From a virus, in the IMG/VR virus record IMGVR_UViG_3300012923_000006, positions 1-40,639 of that record: 40,639 nucleotides of DNA; one strand, written 5' to 3'. Position numbers and translations under genes: made by a program. Below are positions 5,033-34,198 of this stretch, piece after piece. The stretch's first letter is position 1. Each line of letters starts with the position of its first letter. The notes beneath the pieces are model-generated. The model was given only the letters and a program-made list of their open reading frames with translations, did no database searches and was not told the origin of the DNA.

Positions 5033-5564
5033 ACTTCTTTGCAAGCGCAGCCAGTGCATCCGTTTTCGCGGCGGAACCGCTTGAGCTTCCATAGTAGTAC
5101 GTGATGATTCCGGCCCATGCCGTGGCGAGTGATCCGAGCATGACCAGAAGCGCATCGCCGCCCGTTTCAGGTTTGCCGTGAACCAGCAAAAAACCCAGTG
5201 TGCCGAAGAACCCTGCCGTCACCAGATAGGCAAGAAATCTCGGGGTTGAGTCCTTGACCGCGATTTCCCGAGCGCGAGCATTGGCGATGTCCTGATAGAC
5301 GAGCTGCTCTTTCTGGATGCCCAATTCTTCCATCTTAAGCGTGAAGTCATTCTCGGCCTGTCTCATGGCCAAGGCCTGCTCCGGTGTCATCGAGAGCAAT
5401 GCGCTCTGGACCGCTTTGGGGTCGCTGGGATCGACGCCGAATATCTTATTGATGAAAGGAGCTACCAGAGGTGCAAACGGCCCGGCGGCGGCCGTGGCCA
5501 TCGTGGGCGCGATCGTCTTGAAGACTTGGAATGCGGCGCCGCCAATGTCCTTGAGCAGGTTCAT
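5031..5564 (-). CDS. Holin, GTA-type three-TM family
   Basis: ATG 5564 forms an ATGA overlap with the endolysin stop. It has a Gly/Ala-rich N-terminus, hydrophobic segments and the C-terminal YYYGSSSGSAAK motif typical of this family. It is the last gene of the late arm. Confidence 0.6.
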   Translation of the reverse strand: MNLLKDIGGAAFQVFKTIAPTMATAAAGPFAPLVAPFINKIFGVDPSDPKAVQSALLSMTPEQALAMRQAENDFTLKMEELGIQKEQLVYQDIANARAREIAVKDSTPRFLAYLVTAGFFGTLGFLLVHGKPETGGDALLVMLGSLATAWAGIITYYYGSSSGSAAKTDALAALAKK

Positions 5565-5989
5565 GGTGTCTTCTCCGCCAGTTGGGCGATTTTGAATAGC
5601 CGGCGCATCCATCCACGTCCGAACGTGGCGAACGTCGGCTGGGAAGCGAGTTGAAGCGTGCGCTCGGACTGAAAGTCCTGAATGAAGTTGGCCTGGGGTC
5701 TACCGCTGCACATCTGCAGCCACTTCAATGCGCGTCCCTGTCCTTGGAGGACGGAAGCATCGAACGCGAGCAATGCTTCATGCCACGGTAGTGCATCCCA
5801 AGTCTTCTGGTAGAAGTCCCTGGCGTAGAGGAACTTCGCGCGCTCGAGCGACAGATTCTTGATGTCCTCGGTCGGGTACGTGCGCTTGGAAATTCCATAG
5901 CGCGTCTCGCCTCCGGGATCTTTCTCGTTGTTGACGTAGCCGCCCTCGGCTCCAACCACAATGCCGAAAGCGGGGTCGAACCAGCTCAC
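5561..5989 (-). CDS. Endolysin, glycoside hydrolase family 108
   Basis: AEGGYVNNEKDPGGETRYGIS matches the GH108 signature (EGGY..DPGG.T.YGI). GTG start in a GTGA overlap with the upstream gene. Confidence 0.8.
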   Translation of the reverse strand: MSWFDPAFGIVVGAEGGYVNNEKDPGGETRYGISKRTYPTEDIKNLSLERAKFLYARDFYQKTWDALPWHEALLAFDASVLQGQGRALKWLQMCSGRPQANFIQDFQSERTLQLASQPTFATFGRGWMRRLFKIAQLAEKTP

Positions 5990-6403: not shown

Positions 6404-8194
6404 CTAGTTGGGTACATCTGCCGGAGTCCTGCTCATTTCTATCCACGATGTATTGTCGTAACGAAACGTGATCGAGCGGCTGTTCGCATTGGCTGGATTA
6501 ACCCACGCCGACATCTTGTAAATTGCATTCCACGTCGCAGCTCCCAGCGCGCCACCCGATGTGTTGCGCACAACCACAGTGATCTGCTGGCCTGTGGTCG
6601 GACTCGTGGGCGCGTTAATCGTAAAGGCAGCCGCCGTAGAAGCCGGAACGATGAACGTATCCCCGGAATTCGCGACAATATTGACAGTCGCAAAGCTTGT
6701 CGTAACCTCAACTTTCGCAGTCCCGGAGGCGAATTTGAACACTCTGGAGTTGATATCAATGTCGAATAGATGGCCCGTACCACGCGACCATGCGAAGAAC
6801 GATCCAAGCGTGCCGGAGCTGTTGTCGATGCCGATTCCGGCATCCTTTGTCGAGCCTCCCGATGCGCGAATTACAATTCGACTCTGCACGTCCCATGAAT
6901 TCTCAAACATCACCTGATCTTTGCCGGAGGAGACGCTCCAGAAATCGTATGAGGTGACCGGGATATTGCCGCCACTCCCGAAAGACATATTGCCGGTCTT
7001 ACGTTGGACCAAGAACGGCACGTAATGCCCGATCGTATCTCCTGATACCGGGAGTTTTTCCAATAGATAATTGGAGAGATCTTCATCGGTGAAGTTAGGG
7101 CCTACTTGGGTGCCTTGTCCCAAATTCCAGGCAAAAGACCCATTTATGCCCCAGCCTATCTGTGCCCGGCGATTGTCCAAGGCAGTTCGAGACGGAGCAC
7201 CCGGAGCGGCTAGAATGCCATCACTCTGCAGCCAGATTCCGGGATTCCACGTACCCCGAATCAGTAGTTGATTTCCTTGGTGCTGTCCATAATTGATGAA
7301 GGTTGCTGTAGCGGTAGCAGCTGAAGAAAGCCCACCTGTCCACGTGGCTGTAGTCAGTCCATTCGTATAGGTGACATTGCGCACATCACCATTGGAGAAA
7401 GTTGTCGGCCAAGGCCCGGTAGCCAATGCCCAAATTGCAGTTAAAGTGGCTGATGTAGCCCCTCCACTCAGAGTGGTCGTGAAAGTGACCGTGGCCGTGG
7501 TCTGTGGCGTGAAGTAGAACTGCCGCTCTTGTGCGCCATCGTAAGCTACGGGGTATCCCGCGAAACTGTTGCCTGGACCATAATCCAATACAAGACATGG
7601 TGATAAACAGGAACTGAAATCTGGGAATGTCGTGAAATCGGTGACCTTATATCCGTAGCTGATGTTGGGCGGTACGATAACCACCCCGCCACTCGTCGCG
7701 CCTTCCGCACTGACGACTGATATTGCCACCTGCAGAGCGGCTTTGTTCACCGCATTGGATGCACTCTTAGACGCACCATAGCGGCGAATGTCATATGGAA
7801 TTGTTTCAGCCCAGTAATTAGTTGGCGTCACTCCAGCTAAAATTTCTGCTGGTGTTCGAGGGTAGAGAACCTGCCCGATGAGCTGCTGAGTGAGGGTCGC
7901 AAATGTCAGCCCGGAAATAAGTTGATCAACACTCCAAAACGGGTTCGTCGGCGGATCAGTATCAGTCGCTGGAGCAAGAACGAATTTATACGTCAGGGTC
8001 GGGTCGATCCAAACCTGTGCCTCACCGCGATAGTTCAATACGACTGGATTGGTGTTCGGAGTACCGCCAGTCGAATCCGTATAGGTCGCAATCTTCGTGG
8101 TTGTTCCGGCGATATACGTGAACAATAGCCCGCCAACCAATGGGAAGTTGTTGTTGTCGTAGAAGCGCTGAATCGGTAGAGGCGAAAGGTTCAT
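6404..8194 (-). CDS. Tailspike/tail fibre 2 with a shared N-terminal anchor and a probable pectate-lyase-like beta-helix
   Basis: The N-terminal ~93 aa are paralogous to 8196-9131. YDIRRYGASKSASNAVNKAALQVAI...GGVVIVPPNISYGY resembles the start of a pectate_lyase_3-type depolymerase domain. Confidence 0.7.
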   Translation of the reverse strand: MNLSPLPIQRFYDNNNFPLVGGLLFTYIAGTTTKIATYTDSTGGTPNTNPVVLNYRGEAQVWIDPTLTYKFVLAPATDTDPPTNPFWSVDQLISGLTFATLTQQLIGQVLYPRTPAEILAGVTPTNYWAETIPYDIRRYGASKSASNAVNKAALQVAISVVSAEGATSGGVVIVPPNISYGYKVTDFTTFPDFSSCLSPCLVLDYGPGNSFAGYPVAYDGAQERQFYFTPQTTATVTFTTTLSGGATSATLTAIWALATGPWPTTFSNGDVRNVTYTNGLTTATWTGGLSSAATATATFINYGQHQGNQLLIRGTWNPGIWLQSDGILAAPGAPSRTALDNRRAQIGWGINGSFAWNLGQGTQVGPNFTDEDLSNYLLEKLPVSGDTIGHYVPFLVQRKTGNMSFGSGGNIPVTSYDFWSVSSGKDQVMFENSWDVQSRIVIRASGGSTKDAGIGIDNSSGTLGSFFAWSRGTGHLFDIDINSRVFKFASGTAKVEVTTSFATVNIVANSGDTFIVPASTAAAFTINAPTSPTTGQQITVVVRNTSGGALGAATWNAIYKMSAWVNPANANSRSITFRYDNTSWIEMSRTPADVPN

Positions 8195-8195
8195 A

Positions 8196-9131
8196 TCATC
8201 CCAATGGATAGCTGATGCACCAGCCGGCAGCTAATCCCTTGTTGGCTGCGGCTGTAAAACCGGCCTGATTGTTGTTGATACCGGAACCGAAAGTAATCGT
8301 TCCCGTTCCGGCATTGACTGTGGCCCATCCCCCAATGCTGATGCTGTTATCAGTGAGAACACAGGCCACTGCCGATGCGCCGCTGGCGGGGATGACGGCA
8401 GCCGGAAGTCCCGTCATTGTCATGGCGGTTGAATTGGAAGTTCCGGTCACTGCCGGGGCGCGCAACATGCACAATCGACCGACAATCCAGAAGCTGACTG
8501 TCTGAGTCGGACTGCCGGTCATTCCGGTCAATGTTCCCGTGAAGGTCCCGGACAAAGGAACATTGCCAGTTGCCAAGAGCAAAAACGAACCGCCCTTGAA
8601 CATGATGACAGAGGTTTGATTTGCTTGGAGCTGGCCTGAGGAAAGAGCAGTCCCGTCCTGGTTGGTTATCGCAACCACGCCCAGCGAATTGACATTGATC
8701 GTGCTCGCACCGGAATTCGTATTCGACGGAATCCAGTAGATGACGGTGCCATCGGTGTAACTGGTGAAATTGGCAGTGAAGTTCAAGACATAGGAATTAG
8801 CTACTCCAGTGTCTACACCGCCATAGAGCGTGATCAACTGCGAGCTGACGAGTTGATCTACAGTCCAGATTGGATTCGTGGGAGGATCGGTATCCGTGGA
8901 GGGCGCTAGGACGTATTTGTAGCCGAGGTTCGGCGGAAGCCAGATAGACGCCTCACCGCGGTAGTCCAAAATGGTCGGGTTGGCGTTCGGCGTGAGTCCG
9001 GTCGAATCTGTGAACGTGTTCCGCTTGGTGGTCGTGCCAGCGATATAAGTAAAGAGCTTCCCGCCGACCAGCGGACGGCCATTATTGTCAAGAAACAGCT
9101 GTTTCGGGGCTGGAGATAGGACGGCGGTCAT
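8196..9131 (-). CDS. Tail fibre 1 (shared N-terminal anchor, distinct C-terminal domain)
   Basis: LFLDNNGRPLVGGKLFTYIAGTTTK..TDSTG.TPN.NP is a common phage tail-fibre N-terminal motif. It lies directly upstream of its paralogue. Confidence 0.7.
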   Translation of the reverse strand: MTAVLSPAPKQLFLDNNGRPLVGGKLFTYIAGTTTKRNTFTDSTGLTPNANPTILDYRGEASIWLPPNLGYKYVLAPSTDTDPPTNPIWTVDQLVSSQLITLYGGVDTGVANSYVLNFTANFTSYTDGTVIYWIPSNTNSGASTINVNSLGVVAITNQDGTALSSGQLQANQTSVIMFKGGSFLLLATGNVPLSGTFTGTLTGMTGSPTQTVSFWIVGRLCMLRAPAVTGTSNSTAMTMTGLPAAVIPASGASAVACVLTDNSISIGGWATVNAGTGTITFGSGINNNQAGFTAAANKGLAAGWCISYPLG

Positions 9132-9181
9132 GGAATCCCCGTCTCGGCAGGCATAGACTCGGGATCTCTAAGGAGGGATCT

Positions 9182-9382
9182 ATGGCAATCATCTTTGGCA
9201 TTCTGTGCTTTACGTTGGCAGCTCTTGTATTGCTGACCATCTCGCCGATGGTCTTCGCAATAGCCCTTGTGATCGGCCTGTGTTATGTCGGCTACTGGTG
9301 CTTTACCAAATACAAGGGCTATTCCAGCAGAGCGATCAATGCTCGCATCTCGGAACAGCGCAGGGCCTACGGTTACGACTGA
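9182..9382 (+). CDS. Opposite-strand two-TM membrane protein (66 aa) embedded in the late operon
   Basis: Strong AAGGAGG (9170-9176) lies 5 nt before the ATG. Two hydrophobic helices are followed by a basic tail. Hand-counted GC3 is 68%, against 44% for the overlapping minus ORF 9128-9388. Confidence 0.55.
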   Translation: MAIIFGILCFTLAALVLLTISPMVFAIALVIGLCYVGYWCFTKYKGYSSRAINARISEQRRAYGYD

Positions 9383-9384
9383 TT

Positions 9385-11430
9385 TCATGGCTTCCTGCTC
9401 TTTGGCCTGAGTCCGGCACCAGGCTTCAGAGCTTCGCGTACAAACCTCTTGTCCGACCGCGTCTCGATCTTCTCCCTGGCCAGAGTTCCCAGATCAGCCC
9501 CCGGTAGTACTGCATTGACTCCGCGCTCTGCAACGCCTTTGGCGAGGTTCGCCGCATGGGCCGCAACGGTCGTGTTGCTGTTGTTCACAAACGATCCACG
9601 GGGCTGTGCTTGTGTATACCGAGCAACATTGCCGAGGGTCTGGACTTGTTCCGCTCTATGTGGACCGACGAGCTTATTGAGCTTGGGAGTGAGTTCAGAT
9701 AGCGCGCGGTTGTAGCCTGCCTGAGAGAAATTCCCCTCGTTGGTGTAAAGATTCACCCCAGACTTCGACTTGAGGTAGTTCAGCGCGCCGGCAGTAATCG
9801 TTTCCCCCGCGGTAGGATCCCCCTGTAGTGACTCGCGCATCCGATCGATGTTCGATGACTTCCCTTTCACGACGTACTTGTGAATGAAGTCGTCCGCGAG
9901 CGGGGAGGCTTCGCCCATATCAACCGAATCTTCAGCAACCGCTTTGTATGCCGGATCTGCGCGCAACCGTTCAAACCGTGCTCGAGCAGCTGTTCGAGCT
10001 GCATCGGCAATTGGTTTCAGATTGGCTGATTCGCCCGTCATCGGAAGGGATTCGAGGGATTCGCGCACGATGTTGACAGCCGCCGCTGCGTTTCCATCTC
10101 CGGCCCGATCGGCCTTTCTGGCTTCCGCAGCGAGATTGGTTCGCAGGTTTTCGAATTGCTCGAAGTTCATGGCCACTTCGCCGCTACGGATGGCTTCGAG
10201 GTCTGCAGCTACCTGCGGAGGAACGTAGCGCCCTTTGAAAGCCTTCTTCAGTGCGGTATCGGCTTGAGTGACAAACGCTTGTCCATCGACAGGAAATTCA
10301 CCGCCATTCGCATCTCGGAGGGCCTGATACTTCTGATTGATATCCTCACGAACGGTCTGGTCGTATGCCTTATAGCTATCGATGAGCGTCTGGCCGTTCT
10401 GGATATGGTCATTACCGACAACACTCGGAGTGGCCTCGCGACGGATCTCATCAAGGTTATCGATGAGCTGCTGGTTGAGTTCTTGATAACGCTGAGCGAA
10501 TTCCGGATCTTTCCCGCGCCGATTGTGTTCGTGGGAAATCTGTACCGGATCCTGCGTGGCCATCCCCTCTGTGAGACGCATGGGAATTGGCAAAGAATCA
10601 GCCTCGAGATGGCGATCCAATGCAGCCCGATCTACGCCGCCCTCTCTGGCCTGAGCCCGGACAGCCGCTTGCAATTCTGGACTGGCGGTTTTGAGTTGCG
10701 AAGGTACAGCAGCGGCCGCACCGATCGATTCATGCTCGAGCGGATTGACATCGGGCGTGATGGGCTTTGGGGGAACCTTCCCGCCGACTGCGCGGACGGT
10801 CGCATCTGAAACGGCCTCACCAGCCTCGGCAATTTTGCGCCCGGCAGTTGCGACACCAGATGCGGTGGCTCGGGCTCCAGATGCGACTGCTCCTGGAACC
10901 TGTCGCGCGATTGACAGTGCAGGAGACGCAAATGGCGACAGCCCCATGACTCCACCAGCCGCGCCAGCCGCAGCAGGGGCCTCTCTGAGAAAAGTTTCTG
11001 CTGTCGGACTAACCTTGCCGACTTGTGTAGCCGCCTGATCTGCAGCGCCGCCAATAGCCTTGATCGCCGGGCCGTAAGTCGTTGCAAGATCCTGCTCAGC
11101 AGCTTTGGCACTGTCACTCTGTGGCTGATAGGTCAGATAGTTCTGTACGCGACTTTGGACTTCGGCCGGGTTCACGTCCGCGCCGAAAGCCTTGCCGACT
11201 GCCGCGCCTCCATAGGCGAGACCAGCAGGAATAGAGGCCACGGCTCCAGTCGCCATCTTGTACAGCTCTTCCGCGGCACCGACTGGTGCCATCACAAGCG
11301 AAGGTCTCTTGATTGGTTCCGGAGCCGGTTTCGCCCGTCCCTCGAGCAATGCAATCGCCCGCTGAGATGGTGTCTCTTGCGGTTGGTCCTCTCCATCGCC
11401 AGAGAGCAATGCTAGTGCGGCCTGACTCAC
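9385..11430 (-). CDS. Large virion protein, probable internal/DNA-ejection protein
   Basis: 681 aa with an Ala/Gly-rich N-terminal third and a helical remainder. It occupies the position between smaller internal proteins and the fibres, as in podoviruses. No enzymatic motif seen. Confidence 0.5.
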   Translation of the reverse strand: MSQAALALLSGDGEDQPQETPSQRAIALLEGRAKPAPEPIKRPSLVMAPVGAAEELYKMATGAVASIPAGLAYGGAAVGKAFGADVNPAEVQSRVQNYLTYQPQSDSAKAAEQDLATTYGPAIKAIGGAADQAATQVGKVSPTAETFLREAPAAAGAAGGVMGLSPFASPALSIARQVPGAVASGARATASGVATAGRKIAEAGEAVSDATVRAVGGKVPPKPITPDVNPLEHESIGAAAAVPSQLKTASPELQAAVRAQAREGGVDRAALDRHLEADSLPIPMRLTEGMATQDPVQISHEHNRRGKDPEFAQRYQELNQQLIDNLDEIRREATPSVVGNDHIQNGQTLIDSYKAYDQTVREDINQKYQALRDANGGEFPVDGQAFVTQADTALKKAFKGRYVPPQVAADLEAIRSGEVAMNFEQFENLRTNLAAEARKADRAGDGNAAAAVNIVRESLESLPMTGESANLKPIADAARTAARARFERLRADPAYKAVAEDSVDMGEASPLADDFIHKYVVKGKSSNIDRMRESLQGDPTAGETITAGALNYLKSKSGVNLYTNEGNFSQAGYNRALSELTPKLNKLVGPHRAEQVQTLGNVARYTQAQPRGSFVNNSNTTVAAHAANLAKGVAERGVNAVLPGADLGTLAREKIETRSDKRFVREALKPGAGLRPKSRKP

Positions 11431-12881
11431 GGCAGTTTCCCGGTCTCAGAGAGCGAGTCGAGCGCGGCCATTTTGCGCGCGACTTCCTTCCGGCGCGCGG
11501 GAGTCAGATCGCCCAGAATCGCCCGCTGCTGGGCCTCGTCCCCATCCGCTACAGCGTTCTCAAGCCGGAAAGCGTCGATGTCGAAGTTCTTGGCCCAAGC
11601 GGCTTTGAATTTCGGCAATTGGGTGTAATCCGTATCTCCGCCAGTTCCTACAACCTTGTCCAGTCCTTGGCGGTATTTCTCCAGTCCCGTGTTCGTTGCA
11701 TAGTTGAACTGCGTGACGGCCTTGAGAGCTTTCGCATTGAACTTGGTCGAGCCATTTGCAGCTACTGCGGCAGACAGACGCGCATCGCTCGGCGGCCCTC
11801 CCATTGCGGTCATGTTGCTGATGGCGTTCTTTTCCAGATACTTGCCCAGCTCTTGATAGTTGTCGCCGAACACCTGTCCGCCAATGGGATTATTCTGCAG
11901 CAGCGAGACCAACGGACCCGTATTGGTATCATCAGACATCTTCAGGATGTGCTGGAAGATGTTGCGATTCGATGGGGCTTGATCTGCAGCCGCACGAACG
12001 TTTCCGACTTCCTGCTGGAATGATTCGATGTCATGCTGCTGTCCCGGATAGCTCGGTTGAGAAAACGTAGCCTGTTTGGGCGATGCACTTGGACCAGCAG
12101 GATTGCGACCGCCGCCCACAGGAGTGACAGTGTTCTTCTGTGGATCAAAAGCGAACTGCGCACCCTTCTGGTCGGTCAGGATCTGAACGCCAGGACCCAC
12201 AGTGAGCGGAATGCTATTCGGCGCAGCTCCTGGAGCGGCATTCGGGTTGATGTTGGTGAGATCGGCTCCGGTATTTGAGTACTGCGGCCTTTGCTCCTCA
12301 ATCTGCTTACCAGCCGATTCCGCCTGCAATTGAATGGCTCGAAGCGCATCGGACATCCGGCCTTTCGGCGCTTTCTGCAAAGGACCGGCATAAGCGCTGA
12401 GTACAGGCAGAGCATCCTCTCCATACATCTGCCCGTATTGGAGCATTGCTTGGTTGACTTTCTGCCGGCCCTTGTCGCTGTCTTCTGCGACATCTTTGTC
12501 CGAGCGTAGAGCCCCAACCATGTCGGAGAACGCTGCCCGTTGGTCATTGCGCAGTCCGACGAGTTTCGACTTCGCATCGAGTTGACTGGCTTTTGCAGTG
12601 ACTGCACTCTGTACGACATCCAGATATTTATCTCCGGCAGCCTTCATCAGCTCCGTATCGTTCAGCGAGTTGAGATCAAATGTCCCATCATCGCCAATGT
12701 GCTTATTCCAGTCGTAGGTGGCTAATGCAGAACGCTGGCGTTGCGTCTGTTGAGCGCCCGCGACTTCCGCAGCCTGACCCTGCAGCCCCAATTTCTGATG
12801 CTGGATGGTAAGCAGCTGAGAGAGTTTGCCGAATACATCGGGAGTTTGTGCCCCGAGTCCAACTCCGGTGAATTCTGACAT
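11427..12881 (-). CDS. Virion protein, probable internal/ejection protein
   Basis: 484 aa, Gln/Ala-rich and helical. ATGA overlap with the next gene. Assigned by position only. Confidence 0.45.
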   Translation of the reverse strand: MSEFTGVGLGAQTPDVFGKLSQLLTIQHQKLGLQGQAAEVAGAQQTQRQRSALATYDWNKHIGDDGTFDLNSLNDTELMKAAGDKYLDVVQSAVTAKASQLDAKSKLVGLRNDQRAAFSDMVGALRSDKDVAEDSDKGRQKVNQAMLQYGQMYGEDALPVLSAYAGPLQKAPKGRMSDALRAIQLQAESAGKQIEEQRPQYSNTGADLTNINPNAAPGAAPNSIPLTVGPGVQILTDQKGAQFAFDPQKNTVTPVGGGRNPAGPSASPKQATFSQPSYPGQQHDIESFQQEVGNVRAAADQAPSNRNIFQHILKMSDDTNTGPLVSLLQNNPIGGQVFGDNYQELGKYLEKNAISNMTAMGGPPSDARLSAAVAANGSTKFNAKALKAVTQFNYATNTGLEKYRQGLDKVVGTGGDTDYTQLPKFKAAWAKNFDIDAFRLENAVADGDEAQQRAILGDLTPARRKEVARKMAALDSLSETGKLP

Positions 12882-13528
12882 TAGGCGTGCACCGGTCCCG
12901 TGCTTTCGTTAGGGACAAAGCTGCCGCCCCCGCCTCCACCGCCAAACTGTTTCATCAGCCAATAATTCGTCAACCCATTGCTAGCCGCATTGCCAGCTCC
13001 AACATATCCCGATCCCGCCGCCGTCCCTGCATTGGTAATGGCCTGACCCGCATTACCGGCCAAGGTCGTTCCTTGCGCCCCGACTCCTGCAGCAGAGTTC
13101 TGACCGAGCGTTGCGAGCGACGAGAGCCGCGAGAAGATGTTGCCCTGCTGGGTCTGGTAACGGTTAAACGCATCGTTATAGGCGTTTCCGGCATAGTCCT
13201 GGTTGTATTTCAACAGGTCCTTGAGAGCGGACCCGGAAAGTGCTCCGGAACCTGCGGCAGCACTATTCTGCAGCGCTTGAGTACCTTGCTGAAGATTAAA
13301 TGCATACGCCGGATCGGCATAGTTGTAGAACTGCTGAACGTCAAACGGCTGTGTGAATGATCCATACGCTGGATCGTTCTGATTGCCGTAAGTGCCGGTC
13401 ATTGGATCTGGCGCAGCTGCAGCGGGAGCTGATGAACCGCCTCCCTTACCGCCGTTGACGAGCTTTCCTACGATATCATCGCGCTTGAACGCTTTGACCG
13501 GATTCAGCAGATCAGAGAAGAAGCCCAT
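12881..13528 (-). CDS. Gly/Ala/Asn-rich virion protein, probable internal protein
   Basis: 215 aa of low-complexity sequence with a poly-Gly tract near the C-terminus. Contiguous with its neighbours in the structural module. Confidence 0.45.
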   Translation of the reverse strand: MGFFSDLLNPVKAFKRDDIVGKLVNGGKGGGSSAPAAAAPDPMTGTYGNQNDPAYGSFTQPFDVQQFYNYADPAYAFNLQQGTQALQNSAAAGSGALSGSALKDLLKYNQDYAGNAYNDAFNRYQTQQGNIFSRLSSLATLGQNSAAGVGAQGTTLAGNAGQAITNAGTAAGSGYVGAGNAASNGLTNYWLMKQFGGGGGGGSFVPNESTGPVHA

Positions 13529-13995
13529 CAGACCATTCCCAACATGCGTCCGGCTTGGGTATCACCGTGTGCTGCACGTAACGCGAGAATCTGCCGCAAT
13601 TGCATGTTGCCGCCGTTCGGATCACCTCCTTGACCGCCGGCATACATCTGTTGCGGGCCCATAGCGAGTGTGGGCTGAATTCCACCTCCAGGAGTCGGAC
13701 GCCATGCGCCGCTCGGATCTCCTGCAGGACCGCCGGCAAACATGCGCGTAGTACCCGGGTTGGGTCTCACAGACTGGATGTTTTGATTTGGATTGGGACT
13801 GAGACCCAATAGCGTGTTGAGCCGACCCAAAGCACCATATCCGGATTGAATGTACGGCTGCTGCTGTTGATTCAGCAGATGGAACTGGTCCATGTTCAGG
13901 TTCGCAGCGTTCTTGGCTGCGGATGCCTGCTTGTTGGCGCCGTATATGGATGTGCCGATGCCTACTGCGCCAACGGCCACCGCAATCCATGTCAT
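13528..13995 (-). CDS. Virion protein with an N-terminal TM segment, probable internal protein
   Basis: MTWIAVAVGAVGIGTSIY is a hydrophobic N-terminus. There is an internal duplication (MFAGGPAGDPSG and MYAGGQGGDPNG). ATGA overlap with the HNH stop. Confidence 0.45.
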   Translation of the reverse strand: MTWIAVAVGAVGIGTSIYGANKQASAAKNAANLNMDQFHLLNQQQQPYIQSGYGALGRLNTLLGLSPNPNQNIQSVRPNPGTTRMFAGGPAGDPSGAWRPTPGGGIQPTLAMGPQQMYAGGQGGDPNGGNMQLRQILALRAAHGDTQAGRMLGMV

Positions 13996-14528
13996 TGAAT
14001 TATCTCACATTTCTCTACTACGTGCCCCCATCTTTTACCCGTAGATGCGTAGTAGATCGTGGCTCGGGAGACATCGAATTCACGAGCGAGTGCATTCAGA
14101 TTTTCGCCAGCCGCGACTCGGCGCCGGATATCGCGGACCTTCTCTTCATTCAATTTCGCTTGGCTATGCCGTTCGCCCTTGTTGCACTGAAGACCGAGAC
14201 GAAATGAATGCTTTTGGTTTTCGGAAGGAGTCACGTATTCCAGATTGACAGCCGCGTTATTCCCTTTGTCGCCATCAATGTGATTGACGTGCTGGCCTTC
14301 CGGACGTGGCCCTATGAAGACCTCTGCAACAAGCCTATGAACCGTGAAGCGCTTCTTTACGGGTCCGGTCTGGAGCTCGACGGAGAGATATCCGCGAGAT
14401 TTTGAGAATGCCAATAATCCCGGGAGTCCGGATTTGGCGTAGTTCATCGACATCACGTTCCCTAGGTCGGAAACGGCGTAGATGCCCTCGTAACCTTTAA
14501 TCGATGCCCACTGTTCGTGGCAAGACAT
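13992..14528 (-). CDS. Homing endonuclease, NUMOD4 + HNH_3 + C-terminal HTH
   Basis: EQWASIKGYEGIYAVSDLGNV is a NUMOD4 motif and VNHIDGDKGNNAAVNLEYVTPSENQKH is an HNH motif. ATG 14528 lies 32 nt inside the 3' end of the upstream gene. The segment is visibly more AT-rich than its flanks. Confidence 0.8.
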   Translation of the reverse strand: MSCHEQWASIKGYEGIYAVSDLGNVMSMNYAKSGLPGLLAFSKSRGYLSVELQTGPVKKRFTVHRLVAEVFIGPRPEGQHVNHIDGDKGNNAAVNLEYVTPSENQKHSFRLGLQCNKGERHSQAKLNEEKVRDIRRRVAAGENLNALAREFDVSRATIYYASTGKRWGHVVEKCEIIQ

Positions 14529-15012
14529 GCTCGACCTCATGAGGCTCGGCCTCAATGAGTTCGATGCACGCTCTCGCCAGTGCAGCATCTAACTCGGCAT
14601 AGTCCGGCGCGATAATTTCGCGCTCGATATCTGCGAGATTCGTCGATTCTACAACATGGACCGTTGTCCACCAAGTTTCTTCATGCACATAGAGCGCCCG
14701 TTTCGTGCCGGGTTTAGAGGTGAAAATTACAGGTTGCTGACGTGCATCGATCTGCATTCGCCCGAACTCGGTCACCACAGTCACCAGACCGCGGGACACT
14801 ATATTGACGTGCGCATGCCTGTGTATTTTACCAACTACTAGCGCTCCAGCTGGAAGCTGAATGCCCCTCGCGTACGATCCTGGCGCAAAGGTATGGGTCA
14901 GCGGACAATCGATCTGCTCGAATTCCCGCATACGGGATTCAAGCGCTAGGATTTGCTCCCGCGAAGGTATCAGCACCTGTTCAAGCGCCTTACTTTCAGC
15001 TTCGAAGCTCAC
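14497..15012 (-). CDS. Conserved phage protein, possibly cupin-like
   Basis: FAPGSYARGIQLPAGALVVGKIHRHAHVNIVSRGLVTV resembles a beta-barrel phage family I recall from podovirus structural modules. The function is unknown. Confidence 0.35.
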   Translation of the reverse strand: MSFEAESKALEQVLIPSREQILALESRMREFEQIDCPLTHTFAPGSYARGIQLPAGALVVGKIHRHAHVNIVSRGLVTVVTEFGRMQIDARQQPVIFTSKPGTKRALYVHEETWWTTVHVVESTNLADIEREIIAPDYAELDAALARACIELIEAEPHEVEHVLPRTVGID

Positions 15013-32979: not shown

Positions 32980-33707
32980 ACGTCGCAGTAGTTGAGATGC
33001 TGCCTCAACAGCAGGTGACCGAAATCACGCCGATGCAGATGCTGCAGGTCGCCGTTGCACAGGGCGCTGATCTGGAGCGCATCCAGAAGCTTATGGACCT
33101 GCAGGACCGGTGGGAGGCCAAGCAGGCGCTGCACGCTTTCAATGCGGCTCTGGCTGCCTTCAAGAAGAATCCGCCGAACATCGTCAAAGACCTTCTGAAC
33201 AAGCAGTACAACTCCTGGTACACCTCTCTCGGCAATCTCGTGAACACGACGAACGCCGCACTGGGAGAGCATGGGCTCAGTGCTAGCTGGGAGATCGAAC
33301 AGGGCGAACTGATCGCTGTCACCTGCGTCCTTGAGCACGTTCAGGGCCATAGCAGGCGCGTTCGATTGGAAGGTCCGCCGGATACTTCCGGCTCGAAAAA
33401 CACTCTCCAGCAAATCCGCTCCACTCTGACATACCTCAAGGGCGCGACGTTCGAAGCCGTGACGGGCATCGCCTCGCGTGCTGGCAACCAGGATGACGAC
33501 GGCAATGGGGCTGTAGCCAAGCGTGAACCGGCACCGACCGGGTACGACAAATGGAATGCCGACATGACGGTCCTTGCTGAAGAAGGCATGGAGCCTCTGA
33601 CAGCCGCTTGGGGGAAATCCAGCGGAGAGTTCCGCCGCTACGTCGTGAAATTTGATGAGGCATGGTGGCGCGATTGCAAATCGAAAGCCGGGAAGGTGGC
33701 TAAATGA
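32976..33707 (+). CDS. ERF-family single-strand annealing protein
   Basis: YNSWYTSLGNLVNTTNAALGEHGLS...LEHVQGHS...IRSTLTYLKGATFEAVTGIASRAGNQDDDGN follows the ERF pattern (Y.Y..L..v...L...G......H.SG....GSA.TY.RRY...GI...DDDG). Confidence 0.6.
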   Translation: MNVAVVEMLPQQQVTEITPMQMLQVAVAQGADLERIQKLMDLQDRWEAKQALHAFNAALAAFKKNPPNIVKDLLNKQYNSWYTSLGNLVNTTNAALGEHGLSASWEIEQGELIAVTCVLEHVQGHSRRVRLEGPPDTSGSKNTLQQIRSTLTYLKGATFEAVTGIASRAGNQDDDGNGAVAKREPAPTGYDKWNADMTVLAEEGMEPLTAAWGKSSGEFRRYVVKFDEAWWRDCKSKAGKVAK

Positions 33708-34198
33708 GTTTCACCGCCGAAGAGCTGCTTCGGCTCTTCAGACTTGAGGAGCATGGCGTTCTCGTCTGGGTCGCTCCCTCAAAATATCACAAGAATGTAA
33801 TCGGGAAGGTTGCTGGTGCTCCTACCCCTGGGCACTCCGGGAAGCACTACTGGAATATCAGCATTAACGGCCGCAGGTATAAACGCTCGCATCTCGTCTA
33901 CTGCATAAACGCAGGACGCTGGCCCAGGGAGCAGATAGATCATATCGACGGCAACTCGTTGAATGATGATCCGTCTAATCTTCGAGAGGCCTCGCACATG
34001 CAAAACATGTGGAATCTCAAGAGGCGGAAGAAGCGTCTCGCGCTTCCAATGGGCGTGAAGCTGCTGGCTAGCGGGCGGTATCAGGCGCGTATCCGGGTAA
34101 ATAACAAGTGTCTGGCGCTCGGCGCCTATGAGACACCTGATCTTGCAAGCGCAGTCTATCAATCAGCGCGCAGGCAACACTTTGGAGAATTCGCATGA
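33704..34198 (+). CDS. Homing endonuclease, HNH_3 + AP2 DNA-binding domain
   Basis: QIDHIDGNSLNDDPSNLREASHMQN is an HNH motif. GVKLLASGRYQARIRVNNKCLALGAYETPDLASAVYQSARRQHFGEFA is an AP2 domain. ATGA overlaps at both ends. Confidence 0.8.
   Translation: MSFTAEELLRLFRLEEHGVLVWVAPSKYHKNVIGKVAGAPTPGHSGKHYWNISINGRRYKRSHLVYCINAGRWPREQIDHIDGNSLNDDPSNLREASHMQNMWNLKRRKKRLALPMGVKLLASGRYQARIRVNNKCLALGAYETPDLASAVYQSARRQHFGEFA

Follow-up and report, generated by a model that had tools for sequence, protein, structure and literature searches.

Positions 9132 to 9384 of the IMG/VR virus record IMGVR_UViG_3300012923_000006 (40,639 nucleotides (nt), analysed at full length and called the window below) lie between two minus-strand genes, one encoding a putative DNA-ejection protein of 681 amino acids (aa) and the other a tail fibre. 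We propose that this gap of 253 nt is a slot of the "moron" type that holds a real gene on the plus strand (9182-9382), encoding a predicted membrane protein of 66 aa, plus66 (also P0001), most likely with a role similar to that of SieA, the superinfection-exclusion protein of phage P22. As a whole this is the best explanation of the locus, and we assign to it a probability of about 0.62. Its parts differ in strength. The plus-strand open reading frame (ORF) is almost certainly a real protein-coding gene; that its product has an exclusion or entry-modulating role, which is argued by analogy to SieA, is a tentative assignment with rather less than even odds.

The plus-strand gene and its homologue

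The ATG of the plus66 gene at 9182 is preceded at a distance of 5 nt (GATCT) by the Shine-Dalgarno (SD) sequence AAGGAGG (9170-9176, plus strand), whose duplex with the anti-SD sequence is predicted to have a free energy of −12.5 kcal/mol. Among the 417 plus-strand combinations of start codon and ORF found between 5031 and 26908 the gene ranks first in SD strength, and it also ranks first in hydrophobicity (KD17, the maximum Kyte-Doolittle hydropathy over 17 residues, 2.89). A preliminary description of this DNA had pointed to the ORF, to its two hydrophobic helices and basic tail, and to the AAGGAGG 5 nt upstream, all of which are indeed present in the sequence.

Residues 2-20 and 22-41 (nt ~9185-9304) are predicted to form a hydrophobic helical hairpin that is broken at S21-P22. 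The AlphaFold2 (AF2) model agrees, with one helix from residue 2 to 20, a break at S21-P22 and a second helix from 22 to 63 (pLDDT ~85 in the hydrophobic part). The C-terminal tail is basic and ends in RRAYGYD, and by the positive-inside rule both termini should be cytoplasmic. Within the gene there is a perfect 12-nt inverted repeat (9259-9270, AATAGCCCTTGT; 9312-9323, ACAAGGGCTATT) with a near-match at 9220-9231; by our estimate chance would yield ~0.004 repeats of this kind in 381 nt. The overall fold z is only about −1.5, and no comparable stem was seen in the fold of locus L149, which carries the homologue described below.

On the minus strand the same DNA is covered by an ORF of 86 aa (9128-9388), and the two ORFs are exact codon-aligned reverse complements of each other (frame r0). 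The copies of the contig are annotated in conflict: the plus ORF was called on the JGI copy, the minus ORF on the NCBI and ENA copies. The whole-codon likelihood favoured the plus ORF weakly. Since a transmembrane (TM) protein has an atypical composition, this measure discriminates poorly here, and a synonymous-only test was therefore used, in which codon choice is scored given the amino acids and in which the 5th percentile of 66-codon segments from real genes lies at −2.15. In this test the plus66 gene was normal for its genome (z = −0.49), with a G+C content at third codon positions (GC3) of 0.68 versus 0.66 expected; genome-wide, the G+C contents of the three codon positions in coding sequence are 0.60/0.47/0.64. 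The minus ORF was a strong outlier (z = −4.27; GC3 0.44 versus 0.63 expected). It contains the rare codons GTA (four times), ATA (twice) and AGA (twice) at ~6-10 times their frequency in the genome. The hand-counted GC3 values of the preliminary description, 0.68 for the plus and 0.44 for the minus ORF, were correct, as was its list of rare codons.

When 1.84 billion cluster representatives were searched exhaustively with plus66 by HMMER, one relative only was returned, P0013, which is also 66 aa long and 38% identical in an ungapped alignment of residues 1-66 with residues 1-66 (E = 8.9e-7). Word-indexed protein searches with plus66 and with the two-sequence profile revealed no members besides P0001 and P0013, pattern scans of IMG/VR with plus66, its profile and the 501-aa protein of L149 gave no matches, and tblastn of plus66 against the GenBank phages returned chance-level matches only. 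The P0013 gene is found on five assemblies (L149-L153; L numbers denote loci) of a P22-like phage, which are identical around the gene, so that there is no polymorphism to analyse within the family. Its contig has a Phage_stabilise match and a weak integrase match.

The two genes are syntenic. The P0013 gene, likewise antisense, is flanked by a gene of 501 aa and a tail-fibre gene of 339 aa, and its stop is 3 nt from that of the convergent gene; in the window, the plus66 gene and the convergent 681-aa gene have their stops 2 nt apart. In L149 a GGAGG stands 5 nt ahead of the P0013 ATG, the same spacing as in the window. The N-termini of the two tail fibres are 69% identical over 188 aa and the genes upstream of the cassette are unrelated, from which it follows that the small gene travels together with the head module of the tail fibre.

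Although the small genes of the window and L149 share only 46% nucleotide identity, their protein is conserved in the plus frame, and in this frame only. In the plus frame 25/66 residues are identical, the BLOSUM62 score is 1.95 per residue, L149 has no stops, and the ratio of the proportions of non-synonymous and synonymous differences (pN/pS) is 0.53 (pN 0.44; pS 0.83, which is saturated). In the minus r0 frame 12/66 residues are identical, the score is 0.23 per residue, pN/pS is 0.95 and L149 has one stop. At the three codon positions of the plus frame there are 30/27/49 nucleotide differences, and 17 of the 25 identical residues are encoded by different codons. Conserved features are a CF.LAA stretch, the helix break ISP and the C-terminal RRA(Y/L)GYD. 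These sequence comparisons identify the plus frame as the one under purifying selection; the minus r0 frame appears to evolve neutrally.

The preliminary description had favoured the plus strand, had proposed a frame-wise comparison of substitutions in homologous phages, and had reckoned with an outcome in which conservation supports the minus frame alone. The comparison with L149 had the opposite outcome, a conserved plus frame and a broken minus frame. Together with the syntenic homologue and the synonymous codon statistics it bears out the plus ORF as the gene.

A further locus resembles the window in architecture. In L155 (2759-2968) a gap of 243 nt contains an antisense ORF for a two-TM protein of 62-69 aa that ends in ...RAKLGY; the tail fibre of this locus is the closest relative of that of the window (74% identity). 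The match of its small protein to the plus66 family is weak (hhalign probability 20%). In L155 a sense ORF spans the entire gap and stops on the tail-fibre start.

The slot between ejection and tail-fibre genes

About 150 loci with homologues of the 681-aa protein were gathered. In the 48 IMG/VR loci in which both the ejection gene and the tail-fibre gene were recognised, the two genes abut (−4 to +9 nt) in 41 and are separated by a gap of 154-267 nt in seven; the metagenome contigs show a similar split between gapless and gapped loci. Every gapped locus that was inspected contains a small ORF with a strongly hydrophobic segment (KD17 maximum at least 1.6, mostly above 2). Some 20 of these ORFs are antisense to the late genes (several unrelated families with one or two TM segments and 28-69 aa) and five are sense. 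The lower hydrophobicity bound of the antisense set is reached by just 4.2% of size-matched control antisense ORFs. In the family pairs L001/L085, L050/L136, L068/L132 and L059/L148 the frame of the membrane protein is the best conserved among the six. The ejection/tail-fibre junction is thus a recurrently used slot for accessory genes, of which the gene in the window is one occupant. In this comparative sense the term moron, which the preliminary description had applied to the plus gene, is appropriate: the flanking genes are adjacent in most relatives, and the gapped loci that were examined carry unrelated small membrane ORFs.

One locus, L163 (2530-2916), has a gap of 465 nt with two antisense genes. 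The first encodes a 49-aa two-TM protein of a family shared with L072 and L161 (motif GFRK.(L/C).W), and the second is a 78-aa ORF for a putative lipoprotein with a lipoprotein-like signal and a lipobox (LKVFLLFIAIVLTGC).

Small inner-membrane proteins encoded by add-on genes are familiar from other phages: gp15 of HK97 is an exclusion protein of this type, and bor and lom of lambda are further examples of morons. The plus66 gene is similar to morons in being an extra gene between late genes that are adjacent in most relatives, in encoding a small protein of predicted membrane type, and in evolving fast (38% identity versus 69% for the tail-fibre module). It differs from classical morons, which have a recognisable promoter and terminator and are usually co-directional with the late operon, in that it is antisense, has spacers of 2 nt and 50 nt and lacks a recognisable promoter or terminator.

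The closest parallel in position is sieA of P22. This gene (13336-13830, minus strand) is antisense to the late genes and lies 22 nt past gene 16 (which ends at 13313, plus strand) and ahead of gene 9. The preliminary description had called the site next to the receptor-binding genes a typical location for superinfection exclusion, and the P22 map agrees (PMC10883804). SieA, which resides in the inner membrane, is a protein of 162-164 aa with three predicted TM segments that blocks DNA injection, and phages escape from it by changes in gp16 and gp20; the SieA-like genes of other P22-like prophages share the position of sieA (PMC10883804). In map position the sieA and plus66 genes agree (last ejection gene, then that for the tailspike or tail fibre), as they do in running against the late operon and converging on the gene in the gene 16 position (gap of 22 nt in P22 and 2 nt in the window). 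Both encode a membrane protein (plus66 by prediction), and in both cases the slot is not filled in all relatives. The proteins themselves are different. SieA has 162-164 aa (about 160-200 aa across its family), is predicted to cross the membrane three times, or four times in types B and C, and contains the conserved motif FxRYPxEAxxFNK, whereas plus66 has 66 aa, two helices and no such motif. Also, sieA of P22 has an annotated promoter, and for the plus66 gene none was found. Thus plus66 occupies the place of SieA but is not a member of the SieA family.

Members of the 681-aa family (homologues in L001-L148) share an almost universal C-terminal signature, L-x-(P/x)-G-A-G-(I/L/T/V), after which comes a basic tail. 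Among the relatives there is one large group in which the end of the small TM protein copies the C-terminal tail of the ejection protein of its own phage. Such copies occur in L068, L132, L071, L108, L140, L158 and L160, where the small gene is antisense, and in L111, L133, L138, L146 and L127, where it is sense. In L160 the ejection protein ends in ...KFIDDAWSPYAGIEKR and the small protein in ...EFIEDAWAPYAGIEKKD; in L158 the respective ends are ...REHLAPGAGIDYV and ...KEHLGPGAGLDYP. A small protein matches the tail of its own ejection protein better than it does non-cognate tails (permutation P = 5e-5). Of the 10 codon differences between the two tails of L160 eight are synonymous, and the inverted repeat in the DNA is only 79% complementary; from this, selection in L160 seems to act on the tail peptide rather than on an RNA hairpin. 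It is possible that the tail-copy proteins are a decoy or a partner of the ejection protein.

In plus66 there is no copy of the ejection tail, and a motif search in all six frames turned up no other protein of its genome whose C-terminal tail it copies. In L126 (1200-1611) an ejection ORF without the usual ...PGAGI...K tail and without its stop reads in frame into a sense small TM ORF (...ALETVIYFLILLFLVKYRHE...), which is due either to a gene fusion in nature or to a misassembly.

The minus-strand frame and a possible ribosome relay

The minus ORF (9128-9388, 86 aa) starts and ends exactly on its neighbours. At its start, the ATG shares an ATGA (9385-9388) with the stop of the 681-aa gene, and at its end the TGA shares another (9128-9131) with the ATG of the tail-fibre gene, just as the preliminary description had it. 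That the frame is open is by itself unremarkable: the antisense r0 frame is free of stops in 39% of 66-codon segments taken from the real genes of this genome, and synonymous resampling of the plus gene left the minus ORF open in 34-41% of cases. It is the avoidance of TTA, CTA and TCA by the plus gene that keeps the frame open. The 86-aa peptide had no match in PHROG, Pfam or PADLOC (it was not searched against a large database for homologues), and tblastn of the peptide against the GenBank phages gave chance-level matches only. We conclude that the minus ORF shadows the plus gene codon for codon and that it encodes no conserved protein. Dual-strand coding, which the preliminary description had thought conceivable, is accordingly rejected for the 86-aa peptide, with its frame broken in the homologue, a pN/pS of 0.95 and a codon z of −4.27; what is left of the idea is a weaker form, in which the minus frame is translated and the peptide does not matter.

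In this weaker form, which would be an addition to the explanation given above, the plus strand encodes the membrane protein and the minus ORF serves as a ribosome relay or "bridge". On the late mRNA, ribosomes that finish the ejection gene would restart at the ATGA, traverse the insert of 253 nt and come to a stop on the ATGA of the tail-fibre start. The bridge would thereby keep the translational coupling that gapless relatives obtain by abutment, and it would possibly guard against Rho-dependent polarity. We regard such a relay as a minority possibility that deserves to be taken seriously.

Several observations are in its favour. Like the shadow ORFs of GC-rich genomes the minus ORF is an exact r0 shadow, and ATGA junctions are the standard coupling motif; an ordinary shadow ORF, however, has no reason to start exactly on the upstream stop and to end on the downstream start. 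The SD sequence of the tail-fibre gene itself is weak (GGGGA, −5.7 kcal/mol). The gapless relatives have junctions of −4 to +9 nt, and where the small gene is sense, it has couplings to both neighbours. Defined as a sense ORF that starts at most 30 nt from the ejection stop (usually with ATGA or GTGA) and whose end lies at the tail-fibre start or shortly beyond it, a bridge is present in 10/18 antisense-type loci, representing 8/14 families. Only 4.2 families are expected when the codons of the membrane gene are resampled synonymously with the flanks fixed (P = 0.003), and 2.4 when the spacer is shuffled as well (P = 9e-5). Of the bridges, five run in frame r0 and five do not, the latter including those of L001, L002, L085 and L087. 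In L149 the bridge is in frame r1; it begins within the upstream gene, at AAGGAGG-N5-TTG, and extends 8 nt beyond the ATG of the tail fibre. Since the frame differs between the window (r0) and L149 (r1), what appears to be kept is the openness and not the peptide. Selection on openness alone, with a relay that shifts its frame between homologous cassettes and yet stays open, is conceivable on these grounds, although we think it less likely than not.

Other observations argue against a relay. The idea is post hoc, having been formed after the data were seen, and the window ORF alone is not significant (P about 0.34). A bridge is absent in 8/18 loci, mostly of lower GC content, the SD sequences of the tail-fibre genes are equally strong with and without a bridge, and the loci in the test are not fully independent.

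Two features of the junction in relatives may be added. Many genes of the 681-aa family have last codons (…AAG GAC ATC GGC AAA TGA) that double as an AAGGA SD sequence and ATGA restart for the next gene. In the lower-GC loci L059 (8000-8040), L148 (1305-1335) and L108 (4930-4955) a terminator-like GC hairpin with a T-run is found on the sense strand between the start of the antisense gene and that of the tail-fibre gene, and there is no bridging ORF in these loci.

Genome context, expression and function

The contig is that of a P22-like podophage. By the gene calls on the identical NCBI copy it encodes a P22-type coat protein and a Phage_stabilise protein. A run of ejection-type genes for proteins of 215, 484 and 681 aa corresponds in order and size to P22 gp7, gp20 and gp16, and the 215-aa protein matches PHROG 598 (DNA ejection) with E = 4e-15. 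The 681-aa gene (9385-11430, minus strand), the last of the three putative ejection genes, is in the position of P22 gene 16. It is followed beyond the slot by the tail-fibre gene (8196-9131, minus strand; 311 aa), which matches a PHROG tail protein. The late block on the minus strand extends from 5031 to 26908; at ~22 kb it is shorter than the ~26 kb given for the late transcript in the preliminary description. Searched by blastn against the GenBank phage collection, the region 8000-11500 had no match, and the 681-aa protein had one distant match in the GenBank phages, in Pseudomonas phage PAE2. Within the late structural operon, in the region 13992-14588 (L081, 4861-5397), lies a gene resembling those of HNH/NUMOD4 homing endonucleases, with 178 aa in the NCBI gene calls; a further HNH_3 protein is encoded at 33704-34198.

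We suppose that plus66 is translated from its own strong SD sequence on an RNA that opposes the late transcript. In a SieA-like role it would be an inner-membrane protein made apart from late transcription, which would hinder the DNA delivery of incoming phages or modify the cell envelope. The 50-nt spacer from the tail-fibre start to the start of the plus gene (9132-9181, plus strand) must hold or follow the promoter. A weak candidate, TGGAAT-N17-TAGACT at 9131-9159, can be read from the alignment with L149. We infer for plus66 its topology, its exclusion function and its independent transcription, the last of these being an assumption because no promoter was found.

A number of findings weigh against this reading. 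Searches of plus66 against Pfam, PHROG, PADLOC and the PDB gave sub-threshold, TM-biased matches only, and with P22 SieA there was no BLASTP alignment at E ≤ 100 (SieA types B and C were not compared). Promoter scans showed no sigma-70 consensus ahead of the plus gene in either the window or L149 (the host may use promoters of another type), and no convincing terminator after it in either, a weak terminator-like site being present 180 nt downstream. Neither an integrase nor a repressor was detected among the window ORFs that were tested, and hence a lysogen in which an exclusion gene could act is not established. The family has two clear members, which makes the selection test a comparison of one highly diverged pair with saturated pS. 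Finally, the sense-type relatives have the small gene coupled at both ends, including to the ejection gene. This orientation and the fusion in L126 hint that at least some slot proteins act late or in association with ejection and are not exclusion proteins.

The last point leads to an alternative in which plus66 is real and serves another purpose, either as a toxin that is restrained by the late transcript or as an accessory in lysis or ejection (holin, antiholin or membrane anchor). We consider this unlikely. A toxin would fit a small hydrophobic protein with a charged tail whose gene is fully overlapped by an abundant antisense RNA. In the type I toxin-antitoxin systems Hok/Sok, TisB/IstR and Ldr/Rdl a small hydrophobic gene is likewise under full overlap by a transcript of the opposite strand. 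In these systems, however, the antisense is a dedicated small RNA, the toxin mRNA has a characteristic fold and the toxin has one short TM segment, whereas plus66 is overlapped by the RNA of a 22-kb structural operon and has two helices and a long basic tail. Rfam gave no match at E ≤ 1 (which by itself proves nothing), the folding of RNA from both strands was not convincing (z = −1.4 to −2.0), and a promoter scan found no small-RNA promoter. The antisense control after the manner of type I toxins that the preliminary description had envisaged has therefore found nothing in its support.

For a lysis protein speak the size of 66 aa, the two TM helices and the charged C-terminus (seen in the sequence and the AF2 model), which plus66 shares with class II holins and pinholins. 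These, however, would be expected beside the endolysin in a lysis cassette on the late strand. In the window the cassette lies elsewhere on that strand, the endolysin gene (PHROG 315, GH108; 5561-5989, minus strand) being 3 kb away from plus66, which is on the opposite strand. An ejection or assembly role is indicated for those families of relatives whose slot protein is sense and coupled to the ejection gene or carries an ejection-tail copy; the plus66 family carries none. For any late lysis or virion protein the antisense orientation is the opposite of what is needed.

Very improbable is that the 86-aa minus ORF is the sole real gene, a small late protein coupled to its neighbours, with the plus ORF as its shadow. 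Operon polarity, the ATGA at both ends and the calls on the NCBI and ENA copies favour it, and a very hydrophilic ORF will of necessity have a hydrophobic antisense. Its codon use with GTA, ATA and AGA, the stop in L149 and the near-neutral pN/pS in that frame do not, and it leaves unexplained the plus-strand SD sequence and ATG, the conserved length, the helix break and the C-terminal motif. That neither ORF is translated and the gap is a spacer or regulatory RNA with accidental ORFs in a genome of 57% GC is hardly credible, in spite of the frequency of open antisense frames (39% of r0 segments) and the perfect 12-nt inverted repeat: a purely non-coding spacer is excluded by the conservation of the plus-frame protein at 46% nucleotide identity, the SD sequence and its spacing are conserved, Rfam shows no match, the fold z is weak, and hydrophobic ORFs occur in about two dozen independent loci.

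With the plus ORF as the gene, the annotation conflict between the copies of the contig is settled, and a two-member orphan family of predicted two-helix membrane proteins is defined. plus66 is new as an orphan member of a familiar class of phage add-on genes. In a widespread environmental group of P22-like phages the junction emerges as a hot spot for small membrane-protein genes in the position of sieA, and the occupants of the slot are concrete candidates for exclusion or entry-modulating proteins. The bridge ORFs and the ejection-tail copies could matter more than plus66 itself. If the relay exists, an antisense accessory gene could be inserted into an operon without breaking translational coupling; and the tail copies may point to a decoy-type interference with the DNA-delivery conduit, or to help for it.

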